Of a DNA stretch of 64,000 nt, positions 7,124-64,000 are shown piece after piece. Source of the DNA: an uncultured Bdellovibrio sp. (lineage in GTDB: Bacteria; Bdellovibrionota; Bdellovibrionia; Bdellovibrionales; Bdellovibrionaceae); the NCBI GenBank assembly GCA_963932905.1, contig CAWVRN010000001.1, positions 288,001 through 352,000 of the forward strand, in the 5' to 3' direction. Position 1 is the first letter of the stretch; every line of letters begins with the position of its first letter. Made by a program: the position numbers and the translations under genes. Under the pieces are notes generated by a model. It did not search any database. It was given only the letters and a program-made list of their open reading frames with translations, and was not told the origin of the DNA.

Positions 7124-8118
7124 AAATCTCCCAAATTCTTGTGAGTGATAATTTTATGATCTAAAACCCAGGCCGTAACAAACTCGTTCGGAGTGACATC
7201 AAATGAAGGGTTGTATACTTTTGTGCCGTCCGGAGCCCAAGTCAATGACTCGCTAGAAGAATGAAACCCCGTTACTTCGTTAGAAATTCTTTCTTCGATC
7301 GGAATATTGTTTCCACTTGGACATTGTGGATCCACCGTAGTGCGTGGGCCAACTACGTAAAACGGAATTTTGTGTAGGTGGCAAAGGGCCGCTACGGAAT
7401 AGGTTCCAATTTTGTTTGCAAAGTCACCGTTTACGGCGATGCGGTCGCAGCCAACGAAAGCTTTGGAAATTTTTCCTTGCCTCATCAAAAATGCAGCCAT
7501 TGAGTCTGTAATTAACGTGAATGGAATTCTTTCCTTAGACAATTCCCAGGTAGTTAAACGTGCGCCTTGCAGAAGCGGACGGGTTTCATCTACATAAACG
7601 TGAATTTTCTTTCCCTGTTGATGGGCTTTCTTAATGGCTCCCAACGCTGTTCCTGAGCCAACGGTGGCTAAAGATCCCGTGTTACAGTGAGTAAGAATGT
7701 TATCGCCATCTCTGATCAATTCGGCACCTAACGTCGACATACCATCGCATAAAGTCTGATCTTCGTCGAAAATACGCAGAGCTTCAGCGACTAAATCATT
7801 TACTGATGAAAAGTGCTTTAGAACCTGATCAATATTGTTCATTAGGTTAACCGCCGTCGGACGAGCGGCTTTTAACGTTTGGGCATCTTTTTCTAGAGAT
7901 TTTAAATCTTGTCCTAGCAGCGCACGATGTGCCAAGTAAAGACTAGCACTTACTCCAATAAGAGGCGCACCACGCACACGCAGCGATTTAATGGCTTCTA
8001 CCATCTGATCTAGGCTTTCAATTTTTATCCAAATTTCCTTTTTAGGTAGAAGAGTTTGGTCTAGCAACGAAAATTCAGTAGTAGACCATTTTAACGATAG
8101 TGTAGCTAGTGATCTCAT
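7117..8118 (-). CDS. mtnA: Methylthioribose-1-phosphate isomerase
   Basis: LDQTLLP, VRGAPLIG, ARPTAVNL, LTHCNTGSLAT, DETRPLLQGARLT, NKIGTY. Confidence 0.96.
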   Translation of the reverse strand: MRSLATLSLKWSTTEFSLLDQTLLPKKEIWIKIESLDQMVEAIKSLRVRGAPLIGVSASLYLAHRALLGQDLKSLEKDAQTLKAARPTAVNLMNNIDQVLKHFSSVNDLVAEALRIFDEDQTLCDGMSTLGAELIRDGDNILTHCNTGSLATVGSGTALGAIKKAHQQGKKIHVYVDETRPLLQGARLTTWELSKERIPFTLITDSMAAFLMRQGKISKAFVGCDRIAVNGDFANKIGTYSVAALCHLHKIPFYVVGPRTTVDPQCPSGNNIPIEERISNEVTGFHSSSESLTWAPDGTKVYNPSFDVTPNEFVTAWVLDHKIITHKNLGDLC

Positions 8119-49182: not shown

Positions 49183-49600
49183 CATGTGCTACATTCAGAA
49201 AGTATCACAAAACCATCGTCGTCGATTAACAAACTTCAAAATTTTCGAGCTTCTTTAACGAGGACGAATTTAAAAGCCGCTCAGAAAATTTGGTCGAAAT
49301 AAATTCAAAAATATTTGTTGAATCACCGTCGGAGAAGGGGGCTTTCTATTCACAGGCTATTCCTATGTCTGTATTTAAATGTAGTAGGGAAGCTGTGGTC
49401 TTGAATTGGAGACTAGGTTATTGAACGTTTCGAGATTTTCAATAAAATAGGTCGAGGTAATTGTTCGAAAAATAGAGGATATGCATTGAAATCAACCAGC
49501 CCCCAGTTTTGAATTGACCTGGCCGCCTTAAAACTATGGGATCTTGTATACGCTTATAATTAAGGCTTAAAATTGTAAAAATTCACTTTAAAGGAATCAT

Positions 49601-59201: not shown

Positions 59202-59522
59202 TTGAGTAAATGTATGAGCCGAAATAGAACCCTTTTGATAAGCTTTTATCGTTTTGTCCTGAAGATCCAAGGCGGCATCTGTAAAGGTTACGCTAAAGAC
59301 TATCGCGACAGTACGTTAAGGGGAGTTTTGAATAGATCAGAAATTTTGTTTCCTTTAGCAGATGACCCGACATTTTTTTCAGATCCCAACGGAACTATTG
59401 AATGGCTAAATACACTACCAGACCCAGATAAATTGGAAGGATTTAGGTGGGGACTGAAACATCAGTTTTTTACTTCGAAAAAAAAATCAGCAAGACAATC
59501 GGCCTATTATTTCAGAAAATGA
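59202..59522 (+). pseudogene. Probable remnant of a Y1 (IS200/RAYT-like) transposase C-terminal region
   Basis: GIC...KDY..STLRG.L...PL..D..FF.DP..TIEWLN..P...RWGLK resembles, from memory, tails of Bdellovibrio Y1 transposases; no HUH or catalytic Tyr present; GGGACCTGGCACC follows at 59541-59553. Confidence 0.45.
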
Positions 59523-59606
59523 CTTGTTGTAGCAAGAAATGGGACCTGGCACCCTGGCCAAAATTTTATTTTGTTTAGATTGGAACTCAATTTAGTATTT
59601 ATAAAT

Positions 59607-60281
59607 ATGATAATCGAATCGGATAAGAAAAAAGGCAATTTAATCGCGGTTGTTTTGTTGGTCATTGGTTTAATTTTTTTATTTCTGACCGCTAAAGTGG
59701 AAGAACCAGATAGAAATCAACGAGCTGCATTTTTCCTGGGCTTACTGTTGTCGTCGATCAGCGGCTTAGCGTTGATCAATCAAGACGAACGTAAAACAGA
59801 AATCCAATCTGATACGAAGCGAGTAATTTTTAAACGCAAAAGTTTTTTTACTGGCGAAGAAATTAGAGTTGTACCTTTTGATCAGATTCAAAAGGTGGGC
59901 GTAACCGGTGTTGGTCGCCGAGGCCCCGTAGATTCGCGATCCTATTTTATATATATCACCGTAAGGAACGGAAACACGATTCGGACCGGCTATTCCTCTT
60001 TTGATGAATACGGCACAAAAGAGTTAGCCGCCGAAATGGCGAATCTAATTGGATGTGAACATAGTCCAACTCCCATTGCTCCAATGGATAGTGAGCTTAT
60101 TGAAAACGCGATTTTCGCTGCGATTATCGCGGCGGTTACTTGGGCATTTTTCTATCGTTATAAGGTAGGTCCTTGGTGTGCGGCCATGTGGTTTGGAACG
60201 GGACCAGCGTTGTTCATGTTAACCGTTTTTTGGGCCGCCTACTACTTGCTACTACTTTTGCGCCGAAAGTATAAATATTAA
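59607..60281 (+). CDS. Hypothetical membrane protein (4 TM)
   Basis: Two TM pairs flanking a soluble PH-like segment; likely start MIIES. Confidence 0.75.
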   Translation: MIIESDKKKGNLIAVVLLVIGLIFLFLTAKVEEPDRNQRAAFFLGLLLSSISGLALINQDERKTEIQSDTKRVIFKRKSFFTGEEIRVVPFDQIQKVGVTGVGRRGPVDSRSYFIYITVRNGNTIRTGYSSFDEYGTKELAAEMANLIGCEHSPTPIAPMDSELIENAIFAAIIAAVTWAFFYRYKVGPWCAAMWFGTGPALFMLTVFWAAYYLLLLLRRKYKY

Positions 60282-60342
60282 TCGGAAACCGTCTTCATCC
60301 AAATCATAGTTTGCAGTGTATTTATTTTACGTCCCAGATCGC

Positions 60343-60625
60343 GAGGATAGGCAGTTCAAAGGCCGAATCGTTAAAGTCTAACATCTATGTTGGCCTTCAT
60401 TGTTGTTAAAGTTGTGTGATTGGAATGGGTCGTTGGCAAGGAATTTCACTAATTTTTGAAATTTGTGACGTACTTTTGATTTACCACGGTTGTTTTTGTT
60501 GGTCCACGGGCTGGATAAAGTGGCGGCGGTTTAGTGGCAAGGTCCATATGCTTAAGGATTTTTCGAATCACTTTGGGAGCTTCGATGGCGGCAATGATTT
60601 TCATGTTTCCAGAACATGATTGCCA
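60343..60625 (-). mobile_element. IS91/ISCR-family remnant: transposase C-terminus plus oriIS end
   Basis: Minus strand 60616-60449 reads CSGNMKIIAAIEAPKVIRKILKHMDLATKPPPLYPARGP; downstream GCCTTTGAACTGCCTATCCTC (60363-60343) resembles ISCR oriIS. Confidence 0.8.
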
Positions 60626-60676
60626 TTGTTGTTCTACCTGTACCTATGGACAAAAAAATGGACTCATGGACAAGGG

Positions 60677-60946
60677 TCACGTTACAGAATGTTTGGATTT
60701 TAGAGTTTGGTAGCACAAGTCGCATATAATCTGAAGTTCATGGAATTTTTCAAACTCCACAGTGAGGCCTTTCTCTTTAAGGTACATCACTTCACATTGC
60801 TCGCACCATGCCTGAAGATCATTTGGATCATCATTGTTTTCTATGAAACCAACAATCTTGTCTTGCGCCTGTACAAGATGGGAACAAACCGCGCAGCCTA
60901 ATCTTTTGCCATGTGTTCCACAAACAATAATCAATTTAGAATTCAT
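60677..60946 (-). CDS. Small Cys/His-rich (putative Zn-binding) protein
   Basis: GAGGGG RBS before MNSK; CGTHG, VCSHL, AWCEQCE, ICDLCY. Confidence 0.75.
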   Translation of the reverse strand: MNSKLIIVCGTHGKRLGCAVCSHLVQAQDKIVGFIENNDDPNDLQAWCEQCEVMYLKEKGLTVEFEKFHELQIICDLCYQTLKSKHSVT

Positions 60947-61172
60947 TACTATTGCCCCTCTCAATAGAAGTATCCCATGTTTTAGACTTAGTTCAACACT
61001 CCAATCTCCGAGAACCGGAGGCATTTTTATGACGCGTTTTGCGACCGACGTGGCTTGTTCTTTAAACTCTTTTTGAGTTAATATTATTGAACTGCAACAC
61101 GAGAACATTGGGTTATGATGCAGCACCCATTTATCAATAGGAAAAATAAATGTTAAATATTTGGAAGTTTTA

Positions 61173-61532
61173 ATGAAAATTTTAATTTGTTCTTTATTCT
61201 TAGCTCAAATTTCTTTTGCCCAGATGTCCATCGAAACTGTGAGTGAAGTTGGTGTAACTATTGAGGCAAGTCCAAATTCAACTTTTGTAATTAAAAAGGT
61301 ACAACCGGCTTCTCCAGCCTTCAATGCGGGTTTGAAGGAGAATGACCTGATTACTTCCGTGAAGAGAGATTCAAATTCGGAACCTATTCAGATTGCAGAA
61401 AAATCTTTAGAAGAAGTCGTAAATTTACTTAAGGGTCCAAAAGGATCTTTATTGGCACTTGAACTTCTGAGACATCCAGCTAAGGATTTGAAAAAAGTAA
61501 CTCTTGTTCGAAGTGATACTTTGAAGAAGTAA
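61173..61532 (+). CDS. Secreted single-PDZ protein
   Basis: Signal peptide, VGV, SPAFNAGLKENDLITSV, VNLLKGPKGS. Confidence 0.85.
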   Translation: MKILICSLFLAQISFAQMSIETVSEVGVTIEASPNSTFVIKKVQPASPAFNAGLKENDLITSVKRDSNSEPIQIAEKSLEEVVNLLKGPKGSLLALELLRHPAKDLKKVTLVRSDTLKK

Positions 61533-61699
61533 TAAAATACGCCTTAGAACCACTAGTTTGAATTTCAATTCCTCGAATAAAATGCTCTGCAAATCAGAGT
61601 TTTTTTAATGGTGATTTTAAAAATCTTTCTTGATATTTATGCTCGAACCCATGACCAAAACTCCTCGCATTTCTGACCCTTGTTCAGAAAACCCCAAGC

Positions 61700-61935
61700 C
61701 CTACCAGACGCCTACCAAAATCCTACCAAATTATGAAATATCCAGAAATTTCTAGAAATACTGAACCAAAAACACTGATTGGCTAACGCTTTATTTTGAT
61801 TTGAGATTTTTTATTTTTGAAAAAATGATTGTGATAAATGGCGGAGAGGGAAAATACTATTTCCCAAGTTTTTAACTCGTTGAAAGTCTTCATCATTTCT
61901 TACCCGCATAACTAATCTGTAGTAAGTTGTAGCAA
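61700..61935. repeat. att site 1: CCTACCA x3 - GAAAT x3 - 16-bp tRNA-Ser-end core - IHF-like site - TGTAGYAA x2
   Basis: CCTACCA at 61700/61711/61722; GAAAT at 61735/61745/61755; TAAATGGCGGAGAGGG at 61835-61850; TAACTCGTTGAAA at 61873-61885; TGTAGYAA at 61918/61928. Confidence 0.85.
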
Positions 61936-62116
61936 GAAACTGTTTATTGGTGTGATGGCAAAGTCTGCGCGCCTGTTTCATAGCTATTGCTGAATGTTGT
62001 AAGCGCACTGATAACGACATACTCAGTCGGGTTGTCGTCCCTGGAGTTTGGACAACGCAAGTTGTTGAATACATCGAAAAATTTGAAACTGCGATCTGGT
62101 CAATAAAGCTACGGCG

Positions 62117-62165
62117 TCCCCAGCAAGTCCCACGGTAAATCCCTAGAATGTCCCCTGTGTTTCCC
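62117..62165. repeat. Five helically phased TCCC repeats
   Basis: TCCC at 62117, 62128, 62140, 62151, 62162. Confidence 0.55.
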
Positions 62166-62385
62166 CGCGATTTCTGAGGCTCGGGCGGCACCCTTCCTGA
62201 CCGCTAGGTCACAACTCTGTTTTTCGCCTCATTTAAGGGGACCACCTATTTTCTAAAGGTCACTGTAGGGCTGCGCTCATTGCAAGGGGCGGCGTCTTCA
62301 ACGCTGTATTAAAAGGTTTATGGTTTTCTGAAGGGCTGGATGAAAAATAGCATTTGGTTTTGTCCAGTTTTGGCAGCAGGTTGTT

Positions 62386-62401
62386 TGGCAAAGTGATTGC
62401 A
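62386..62401 (+). promoter_or_regulatory. Sigma54-type promoter
   Basis: TGGCAAAGTGATTGCA, canonical -24/-12 spacing, 13 nt before the ATG. Confidence 0.7.
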
Positions 62402-62414
62402 TTATTAATTAGCG

Positions 62415-63335
62415 ATGATTGTTAAATTGAATAAGCTCTTTATTACTGCTTTTATTTCTTTGTGGTGTTTACCAATTTTTGGTAGTGAAACTCACTTTCC
62501 TCTTACAATGGTAAATGAGCTAAGCGCGGCTAAAAAACAAGGACTACAAAAGCTTCTCAATGTATCATTTGGGGCCGAATTTGATGGGTTCTCTTGCTCA
62601 GGAACATTTATAAATAATCAGGGTATGTTCTTAACCGCGGATCATTGTATTAAGTCCTGTTTTTTGGGTGAAAACGATGATCAATATACAGACTATAGAA
62701 GCTTTAATCGACGTGATCTAGGCCCGGCTCAGTGGTTAAACTTTCGCCGATTTTATCCTAACCGTGTACCAGAAAATATTACCTGTGAAACGGTTATTAA
62801 TGGTGAGACTAAAAAATCGAAACTTGTTGTCGCTAGTAATGGAAGGCTAAACCCTTATTTTCCAAAGCAACTTGAGGCACCTGATCTTATCGAAAAGTAT
62901 AAAGAATTTGTTGAATCAGGTGCAGGATGGCCTACTGGAGATTTCGCAATCTTGGAGCTCACAGATAAACCCAAAACCAATTGCCTGCAGCTGGGAAATC
63001 GCCTTCCAAGCAAAGGCGAAACAATTCAGTCTATTTCATTTCCCTTAATGAACTTGAACGAACGGATTCCATTTTATTCGTCTGGTGTTTTACTTGACGA
63101 GGAGAAGAGCGAACCTAACTCATTTGTTTCAACCGTTGATGCAGAGACAGGATCAAGTGGAGCAAGTCTAATTGGAGAAGATGGGAAAATTTTAGGTGTA
63201 GTAAGTATTGTCGTCGACATTCGCGACCCAGTGGCAAAAATAAAAAAAACTCTCAAAGTCACAAGTGTTCTTGGTATATTGAAATCGATCCGCGAAACAT
63301 TAGGATATGATATCATTTGCAAAACTGAACAATAA
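62415..63335 (+). CDS. Secreted trypsin-like serine protease
   Basis: Signal peptide; CSGTFI, LTADHCI (His), GDFAIL (Asp), TGSSGASL (Ser). Confidence 0.92.
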   Translation: MIVKLNKLFITAFISLWCLPIFGSETHFPLTMVNELSAAKKQGLQKLLNVSFGAEFDGFSCSGTFINNQGMFLTADHCIKSCFLGENDDQYTDYRSFNRRDLGPAQWLNFRRFYPNRVPENITCETVINGETKKSKLVVASNGRLNPYFPKQLEAPDLIEKYKEFVESGAGWPTGDFAILELTDKPKTNCLQLGNRLPSKGETIQSISFPLMNLNERIPFYSSGVLLDEEKSEPNSFVSTVDAETGSSGASLIGEDGKILGVVSIVVDIRDPVAKIKKTLKVTSVLGILKSIRETLGYDIICKTEQ

Positions 63336-63527
63336 CCCTTCTTCTGGGACCAAAAAGCGATCATAGTTTTACAAATCTTTGTGGACATTAAATTTTTTCG
63401 TCCCAGAATCAATTTTCCAAAAATTCTTAAAATTTTAGATGTCCATTAACGGGGACGCTTTTGAAAATCGAACAAGAATAGTTCAAGACGACCGAGTATT
63501 GCTAAAGTTACGCCATAGAAAAATCTG

Positions 63528-63778
63528 TGTAGCAAAAGTTGTAGTAATCTGTAGCAAGATTTTGAAATGAGCAGAAATACCCGGAAATATTCTGAACCCC
63601 GAGTCAAACCGGGGACGTCTTCAAACAAGTATTTTCAAACACTTGAATCATTTAAAAATTTTTGATTTTAATTTCAGGGACTTGATTTTTCGAGACACTA
63701 AATGGCGGAGAGGGCGTTTGTGGTGTAAGCGCTTGATATAATTGATCTCCATTTTTGTACCCTACCAATTCCTACCAA
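63528..63778. repeat. att site 2: TGTAGYAA x3 - GAAAT x3 - 16-bp core - IHF site - CCTACCAA x2
   Basis: TGTAGYAA at 63528/63540/63550; GAAAT at 63564/63574/63584; core at 63699-63714; TAAGCGCTTGATA at 63726-63738; CCTACCAA at 63761/63771. Confidence 0.85.
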
Positions 63779-63909
63779 CCGAAATGGACAAGTCGTTTTT
63801 CAAAATTATAATGTGACCCCCGTAATGGGTACCCAATGGCAGAAATACTTATTTTGAAATACTGTGGTTTTAATATTTATTCTAATAGTTTAGCCTCATT
63901 TGCTTGATG

Positions 63910-63989
63910 GTCGGTAAAGCCAACTTACCGACGAATAACCTACATCAAACCCCTGGATGACCCCTGGCGAATCTACGGGAAATCTGCGG
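63910..63989. repeat. Inverted repeat plus 11-bp-phased repeats at the start of the next element
   Basis: GTCGGTAA-7 nt-TTACCGAC (63910-63932); CCCCTGG at 63950/63961, TCTRCGG at 63972/63983. Confidence 0.55.
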
Positions 63990-64000
63990 TAATGAATAGG

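Follow-up and report, generated by a model that had tools for sequence, protein, structure and literature searches.

How could a DNA unit that carries a single protease gene and no recombinase of its own move between genomes? The question is raised by positions 61835-63714 of the window, the 64,000-nucleotide stretch of an uncultured Bdellovibrio sp. analysed here (assembly GCA_963932905.1, contig CAWVRN010000001.1, positions 288,001 to 352,000). We regard it as probable, with considerable reserve, that this 1864-bp unit is a miniature, gene-less derivative of an integrative and conjugative element (ICE) that retains cis-acting sites only and would be moved in trans by a helper, with a cargo that is likely a separate cassette. 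The genome under study (4.55 Mb) is referred to as G000, other genomes and loci by G and L labels, and sequencing runs by X labels. Units with CCTACCA arms are designated A type and those with TGTAGYA arms B type.

Boundaries and gene content of the unit

The unit is bounded by two identical copies of the 16-bp repeat TAAATGGCGGAGAGGG, at 61835-61850 and 63699-63714, with a spacing of 1864 bp. The first 12-13 bases of this repeat are the reverse complement of the 3' ends, with flank, of the three tRNA-Ser genes of the genome. Two left arms (TGTAGTA/TGTAGCA) start at 61918 and 61928, and three right arms of the TGTAGYA type at 63528, 63540 and 63550. Clusters of this motif occur at just 7 sites across the 4.55-Mb genome, every one within units with these ends. 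The unit comprises the following features:

61835..61850 (no strand): left att core, one copy of the 16-bp direct repeat, reverse complement of a tRNA-Ser 3' end
61918..61934 (+): pair of arm-type repeats, TGTAGTA/TGTAGCA, from the motif scan
62000..62215 (no strand): origin of transfer (oriT)-like relic of the 3' end of an ICE-B gene for a MOB_C-like relaxase, from nhmmer with 4 ICEs
62216..62354 (no strand): conserved 3' portion of the left end, closing with CATT (62351-62354), the fixed left cargo junction, from end comparison
62355..63343 (+): 989-bp cargo, likely a cassette, starting with TGGTTTT and ending with ATAACCCTTCTT, mismatch-free in X3 and X5
62386..62401 (+): sigma54-type −24/−12 box, GG at 62387 and GC at 62399, 14 nt from the ATG, kept in the G123 ortholog
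62415..63335 (+): gene for a 306-aa trypsin-like (S1) serine protease by Pfam, its stop codon overlapping the right junction motif
63332..63343 (+): right cargo junction motif, consensus WAAMCMCTWSTT, from junction comparison
63344..63527 (no strand): conserved inner portion of the right end, containing GGGAC/GTCCC motifs plus a weakly folding (z −1.8), imperfect inverted repeat
63528..63556 (+): arm-type repeats in three copies, TGTAGCA/TGTAGTA/TGTAGCA, from the motif scan
63699..63714 (no strand): right att core, the other copy of the 16-bp direct repeat

No recombinase open reading frame (ORF) was found in the unit, and none of the 10 PF00589 matches of the genome falls there; relaxase and mating-pair formation genes were likewise absent from it. 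The intact arms at both ends and the missing recombinase, both noted in the initial annotation, were thus confirmed, and its description of a non-autonomous unit with lambda-type att sites is supported. The ORF at 61811-62191 was rejected as a relaxase frame, being a shadow frame, and TAGCAT at the left junction was not called as a −10 box by the promoter scan. Rfam gave no match within 60000-64000 at E<=1. The predicted folds of the end segments did not stand out (z −0.6 to +1.7, and −1.8 for the hairpin of the right end), and a non-coding RNA is not supported.

The product of ORF 62415-63335 matched Trypsin_2 in Pfam (E 3.5e-11), with Trypsin also above its cut-off. It retains the His, Asp and Ser motifs (TADHC, GDFA and GSSG) and, by eye, has a signal-peptide-like N-terminus. 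By domain and triad motifs it is an S1 (trypsin-like) protease, with predicted activity and secretion. Its family is small (5 close proteins), and the protease had no match in viral contigs. The GG-N10-GC box at 62386-62401, 14 nt ahead of the ATG, is of the sigma54 −24/−12 type. An ortholog in G123, 80% identical, has kept both the box and the 14-nt spacing, which makes a near-leaderless start of the protease mRNA plausible. The intact trypsin-like gene behind a sigma54 box, as first annotated, therefore stands. In G123, the ortholog lies just outside a 3.7-kb integrase-less unit.

Shared ends, probable ICE ancestry and the oriT-like segment

The ends of the unit are conserved well beyond the att arms, over ~520 bp on the left and ~370 bp on the right. 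G000 holds the left end three times (97-98% identical) and the right end four times (91-94%), plus one diverged unit. These copies lie at three loci: the window array, tRNA-Ser(TGA) and contig C16, where they stand beside another ICE's integrase. The tRNA-Ser(TGA) copy sits directly at the tRNA gene, with no ICE in the 14 kb inspected. The cargoes between the G000 ends are trypsin, TetR+SnoaL, GNAT and adhesin-like; across the family, DUF4423 regulators and an ISL3 transposase are also found. Homologous ends with other cargo, which the initial annotation had proposed to look for, are thus present in G000 and other Bdellovibrionales, and the variety of the cargoes gives no support to its idea of a possible device for shuffling secreted enzymes.

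Beyond G000, complete integrase-less units were found in G127/L060 (at tRNA-Ser, left end 81% identical over 527 bp) and, diverged, in G191/L073; G001/L011 has a left end at 67% identity and L039 a right end. The left-end interior is rare, occurring in 4 of the 182 family genomes. Among 21 metagenome arm matches, L026, L030 and L034 were G000 itself and were dropped, and most others lacked core or end similarity. Loci L055, L056, L057, L059, L060 and L063 duplicate stretches of G001, G004, G127 and G035 and were counted once. Insertion sequences (ISs) lie in or beside unit ends at L011:5830-6708 (ISL3 by Pfam), L031:1-120 and L032:5248-6429 (the last two by eye).

Autonomous elements share these ends. 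The ICE-B elements in G004, G001, L043, L062 and L063 open with the core found in the unit, and its arm motif recurs 62 bp further on, immediately behind the integrase gene; the ICEs in L047 and L049, with an integrase and the other genes named next, likewise begin with this core and these arms. The integrase gene is followed in ICE-B by Xis-like, MobC-like, FtsK and VirB4-like genes, and in L043 the element adjoins genes homologous to the host genes of window 44-48 kb. The ICE-B integrase group was detected in 40 of the 182 family genomes at E<=1e-90, and only G001 has the left end and ICE-B together. No ICE-B with both ends was recovered among the genomes and loci examined. The initial annotation had held that larger relatives with their own integrase, combined with a lack of circles and of cargo variation, would speak against a cassette; such relatives do exist behind the same arms, and the cargo does vary. 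Between the att arms and the ICE-B integrase stop, L062 (oriented, 7165-7741) contains what by eye is a two-gene HigBA-type toxin-antitoxin-like module.

The left-end interior links the unit to these ICEs. Its profile matched the 3' end of the ICE-B gene for a 302-aa protein in four ICEs (nhmmer, E 2e-12 to 6e-7). An alignment anchored at CAGTCGGG (62024) gave a gapless identity of 44-50%, compared to a mean of 25% and a maximum of 36% in shuffles. GTCCC/ATCCC repeats occur at offsets +13/+92/+103/+115/+126 in the unit and +13/+92/+103/+114/+126/+137 in the ICEs. A protein-level trace of the relaxase in the left end was at control level only; DNA motifs therefore seem to have been kept, and coding capacity not.

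The 302-aa ICE protein is probably a MOB_C-like relaxase: hhalign gave 93.7% over 210 columns to a Replic_Relax hit, and residues D162, E179, E181, K185 and Y190 are invariant. It had no match in the PDB. According to the available portion of PMC12857230, TraX, the MOB_C relaxase of pAD1, binds five direct repeats at 70-120 bp from nic, and the nic site of CloDF13 is given in the corresponding part of PMC5935869 as GGGTG/GTCGGG. The ICE motif GGGGTAGTCAGT lies ~20 bp behind the relaxase gene and is conserved in 7 ICEs (51-100% protein identity). As far as these two sources describe them, the pAD1 and CloDF13 (MobC) systems resemble ICE-B in a relaxase that here, too, appears to be of winged helix-turn-helix plus PD-(D/E)xK-like build, and in direct repeats ~70-120 bp from a GGGTR/GTCRG-like motif. 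They differ in that here the 3' end of the relaxase gene itself contains the repeats; in the unit, moreover, 4 of these are clustered and the motif is changed in its left half. The segment at 62000-62215 may accordingly be called an oriT-like relic. Its motif had no match in viral contigs, and three one-mismatch matches outside the family had no relaxase or integrase nearby.

Units with other arms repeat the design. The ICE nic-like motif is nearly or fully intact in A-type units of G004 and G001, including one perfect GGGGTAGTCAGTC, so that the combination of att arms, oriT and cargo site appears to have arisen with at least two arm codes. The A-type mini units L047:12487-13962, L039:4606-6060 and L079 carry the GGGGTAGTCAGTC-like ICE motif and repeats of their own. 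The A-type left end in the window showed no protein-level relaxase trace, and the oriT-like motif is therefore claimed for the A units L047, L039 and L079 only.

A left end with an ICE att arm and the 3' end of a relaxase gene, kept as DNA, makes the unit likely to be a miniature ICE derivative. Its backbone most likely arose by internal deletion from the ICE family and then persisted and spread as a gene-less hitchhiker. An ordinary cis-mobilizable element (CIME) would share the first half of this history: such units would be decayed ICE remnants with a dead oriT, travelling only in cis with a neighbouring ICE, and their cargo would be swapped by homologous recombination of the ends. An internal deletion of the ICE-B left arm clearly gave rise to the left end. 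The unit has no integration or conjugation genes, keeps attL and attR, and stands in a tandem array with an element, ICE1, that ends at tRNA-Ser(GCT); the C16 copy abuts another ICE's integrase. Half of the nic motif is altered, the assembly contains no helper, and the definition of CIMEs and their tandem accretion, as the relevant part of PMC5704250 sets them out, fit. We nevertheless consider plain CIMEs unlikely, while giving them real weight, because the same deletion product, with motif and repeat spacing conserved, recurs in 4 lineages at 67-81% identity, and because copies occupy three loci, one of them, at tRNA-Ser(TGA), with no ICE in the 14 kb of surroundings inspected. Homologous recombination cannot yield many cargoes with base-precise ends, or one cargo in unrelated flanks, and A-type units repeat the design with other arms, one with a perfect GGGGTAGTCAGTC.

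Evidence on movement comes from the sequencing runs, in which the joint from 63698 to 61835 was seen in three of four. In run X4, the core connects a canonical right end, with 9 differences from the window's right end over 310 bp, to a left end, on a contig assigned to the joint by equal depth. The right-end/core/left-end tandem of G000 at tRNA-Ser(TGA) differs from the window's right end at 76 positions over 63389-63698 and so cannot explain the X4 joint. In X2, a left end with the C16-type 8-bp duplication follows a right end, an arrangement not present in G000. The two joints indicate that units recombined at the core in close strains, and tandems fit them as well as circles do. Base 61893 has the allele of the other copies in X1, X2 and X4; the window's own circle is therefore not demonstrated. 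Of the 1864-bp circle with a B3-core-B2 junction suggested in the initial annotation, the junction was recovered and circularity was not proven. The recent function that it proposed is supported by these joints and by the cargo junctions of X3 and X5.

Several observations weigh against a trans-mobilized derivative. The joints of three arms and two arms stand in contigs at chromosome-like depth and may be tandems. The 302-aa protein scored below the NCBIfam cut-off with NF041423 (E 1.6e-5), and Replic_Relax was matched by only 2 of 30 homologs. The diverged ICE L054 lacks GGGGTAGTCAGT. Where ICEs have GGGGTAGTCAGT, the left end reads GACATACTCAGT, with the left half altered; four left-end lineages retain this version, and mini units were the only elements in which it turned up (exact in 3 of 384 genomes), none of them an ICE, so the nick site may be dead or may suit an unsampled helper. 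The ICE-B integrase was not found at E<=1e-90 in G000, G127 or G191, and G000 has no close helper, its best integrases being 33-36% and its best relaxases 25-36% identical. Finally, the B-like integrase-less unit of G123 (3.7 kb, G123:C14, L077:11049-14714, at tRNA-Ser(GGA)) and the ICE-type left end of L039 lack the oriT interior, which indicates that plain decay happens too.

Four more MobC-like relaxase genes (25-36%) mark further ICEs in G000, at C11:58645, C3:243709, C1:2504 and C45:16234.

The cargo as a likely nested cassette

The cargo has fixed limits. Left ends that are nearly identical cease to match within ~2 bp of CATT, and the match between right ends begins at a 12-bp motif; among 11 left and 13 right junctions tabulated, CATT was present in all left ones, and four columns are invariant in the right ones, whose consensus is WAAMCMCTWSTT. 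At its two ends the cargo has an approximate 7-bp inverted repeat (TGGTTTT ... AAAACCA); a 6-bp CTWSTT lies outside the right-hand copy, and the target is not duplicated. Runs X3 and X5 come from two studies, and in both the trypsin cargo, free of mismatches, is joined exactly at 62351, to two different unrelated sequences; in X3, the sequence also departs from the cargo after 63343. Further, new cargoes occur at the same junctions in X3 and X7. An identical trypsin cassette in different flanks points to a second, nested cassette layer, and the 989-bp cargo is likely exchanged separately within the unit. The likeness to integron cassettes drawn in the initial annotation fails for the 1864-bp unit; the integron-like part would be this nested cargo.

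If the backbone were mobile in trans without any cassette system, CATT and WAAMCMCTWSTT would simply be the backbone limits, and the X3 and X5 flanks would be IS insertions or chimeras. No loader enzyme was found and the motifs are not enriched outside backbones, as this account would have it; the G123 ortholog is without cassette ends and the X3 and X5 flanks are absent from G000. In two studies, however, the break falls on one and the same base and leads into different sequence, and in X3 this is so on either side of the cargo. A-type mini units also share both the CATT and the right-motif junctions with B units, from which their backbones are otherwise unrelated. L079, an A-type unit found by oriT similarity alone, provides a blind case: CATT is followed at the aligned place by TGGTTTTG, whose first eight bases are those of the trypsin cargo. 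In the tRNA-Ser(TGA) unit, moreover, the start of an A-type right end lies between the cargo and the B junction. A backbone without cassettes is thus improbable in our judgement.

The case for a cassette has its own counterweights. The junction table was cut with patterns that contain the motifs and so describes the junctions rather than testing them. The X3 and X5 evidence consists of three low-depth contigs (777, 803 and 410 bp, at 3-4.3x), with 30 flanking letters seen; the flank motifs were not found in G000, and the one searched in viral contigs had no match there. Genome-wide, the junction motifs were not enriched (19 compared to 16.7 expected; pairs, 9 compared to 8.6). The right motif reached >=13 bits in only 2 of 24 A-arm clusters (30 loci), and the G123 trypsin ortholog lacks it.

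A cassette recombinase was not found in G000 by searches for tyrosine recombinases, resolvase, IS110 and Y1/RAYT-like genes. IS110 is absent from G000, and the two Y1/RAYT-like genes and eight other tyrosine recombinases were rejected as loaders, having no cassette-type ends by eye or scan. Motif matches on C30 and C56 proved to be coding duplicates. Small ORFs with only the catalytic domain of a tyrosine recombinase (160-217 aa) are candidates for cassette exchange and lie at C4:164708-165199, C4:168188-168670, C15:52390-53043 and C14:95622-96164.

A small serine resolvase gene was observed just inside the right ends of larger family islands, in the B-arm loci L046, L050, L051 and L052 and in 10 of 30 A-arm loci. 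A terminator-like hairpin, possibly an attenuator, directly precedes the resolvase start in the four B-arm cases. This position, together with GGGAC/GTCCC motifs in those ends and 10 times in the ends of the unit, might suggest that the resolvase loads cargo and that the junctions are res crossover sites. We hold this to be very improbable: the profile of the right-end interior does not match the regions upstream of the resolvase, the junctions do not have in common a symmetric site with one central dinucleotide, the relaxase region accounts for the left end's GTCCC repeats, and the closest small resolvase in G000 is broken.

Neighbouring elements, proposed movement and relation to known systems

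The 1864-bp unit belongs to a tandem array, which extends beyond the edge of the window and leads into an ICE. Its neighbours are as follows:

61081/61110..61834 (+): left neighbour, A-type unit with a PDZ gene at 61161-61532
63715..64000 (+): right neighbour, start of an A-type unit with CCTACCA twice at 63761-63778 and a 314-aa cargo

The PDZ gene sits between CATT (61109) and a junction motif ending at 61558, and the right end that follows has three CCTACCA copies at 61700-61729. The right neighbour continues beyond the window (G000:C1 to 353470), up to ICE1, a 36-kb element (G000:C1:353469-389900; L001, L002) that ends at tRNA-Ser(GCT) and has GTAGCCA arms at both ends. It encodes an integrase, an HTH_17 excisionase-like protein, a Replic_Relax relaxase, FtsK, a VirB4-like protein and a 2704-aa protein. 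Its arms thus differ from those of the unit, and its integrase is 34-36% identical to the ICE-B type. Stacking of elements at tRNA ends by tandem accretion is known from the relevant part of PMC5704250.

A short remnant of a diverged right-end interior at 49237-49290 suggests that the array starts near 48-49 kb. Window 60340-60620 (−) holds a fragment that resembles an IS91/ISCR-type transposase in its C-terminal part and has an oriIS-like end; C4, C7 and C32 carry pieces similar to it. A remnant at 59202-59560 is similar to the 3' part of a Y1/RAYT-like gene on C12 and has the motif GGGACCTGGCACC, which resembles repetitive extragenic palindromes and is present after the trypsin gene of G123 too.

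A working model of movement would have four steps. First, a helper integrase and excisionase would act on the TGTAGYA arms to release a circle with a 3-arm/core/2-arm joint. Second, a MOB_C-type relaxase would bind the 11-bp-spaced repeats and nick 90-130 bp away, and the type IV secretion system (T4SS) of the helper would export the unit. Third, integration at a tRNA-Ser end or at the att site belonging to an element already in place would build arrays. In the fourth and weakest step, cassettes with the short inverted repeats TGGTTTT ... AAAACCA would be swapped by a recombinase, probably of the tyrosine type, between CATT and the 6-bp CTWSTT flank without target duplication.

Compared with known classes, the unit has the features of a CIME wherever these were tested, and falls outside integrative mobilizable elements and integrated oriT-bearing elements (iOriTs), integrons and strand-biased circularizing integrative elements (SEs); it is iOriT-like on the outside and perhaps integron-platform-like inside. 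Like CIMEs, as the relevant part of PMC5704250 describes them, it has no integration or transfer genes, keeps attL and attR, is stacked with ICEs at a tRNA 3' end and descends from an ICE. In place of one-off decay, the unit shows a standard backbone found in multiple copies and genera, a retained oriT-like segment and base-precise cargo exchange. iOriTs and mobilizable genomic islands are integrated elements that carry an oriT without relaxase or T4SS and hitch on an ICE (bioRxiv 10.64898/2026.01.13.699239 and PMC5704250, in their relevant parts); the unit, too, is integrated and has neither relaxase nor T4SS, and its oriT-like segment may play the corresponding part. In contrast to them, the unit lacks an integrase, is only 1.9 kb long and stems from the very family that would supply its helper; in the iOriT preprint (bioRxiv 10.64898/2026.01.13.699239), 92% of att-delimited islands have an integrase nearby, and all exceed 4 kb apart from one of 2 kb. 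SEs, according to the part of PMC9345347 that treats their ends, likewise have imperfect terminal inverted repeats and carry a 6-bp spacer along; they differ in having 19-bp repeats and their own IntA/IntB, compared to ~7-bp repeats and no enzyme in the cassette.

The attC signature (RYYYAAC ... long imperfect palindrome ... GTTRRRY) was absent from the unit by eye, the hairpin being weak (z −1.8) and not closed by GTT. No IntI stands beside the platform, and none of the 10 tyrosine recombinases lies at a unit's cargo site. Like the cargoes here, integron cassettes are compact, with one to three genes, the stop codon at or near the right site and a fixed insertion point in a platform; here, unlike in integrons, the platform itself is mobile and att-bounded. 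Tn916 coupling sequences resemble the cassette in that a 6-bp spacer accompanies imperfect terminal inverted repeats. The literature searched contained no account of units of this kind in Bdellovibrionales, most subscription journals and the supplements of the iOriT preprint being outside the search.

More tentatively, and as a possibility that we do not favour over doubt, the units could form a two-tier gene shuttle in predatory Bdellovibrionales, in which fully parasitic mini-ICEs, consisting of nothing but att arms and a MOB_C oriT and having arisen two or more times under different arm codes, would be the mobile platforms of a previously undescribed class of cassette with ~7-bp inverted ends and CATT/CTWSTT junctions, exchanged by a recombinase of its own and integron-like without attC or IntI. 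In the prevailing view, integrative hitchhikers require an integrase of their own as a minimum, and the mini unit would depart from that. A backbone of 0.9 kb that holds no more than att arms and an oriT-like segment would correspond, among ICEs, to a miniature inverted-repeat transposable element and would escape island finders based on integrases or relaxases. It would also offer candidate nic and binding sites for a poorly studied class of relaxase. If the cassette layer is real, it would represent a precise route of gene capture outside integrons, with short, defined ends that might serve gene delivery in Bdellovibrio-like predators.

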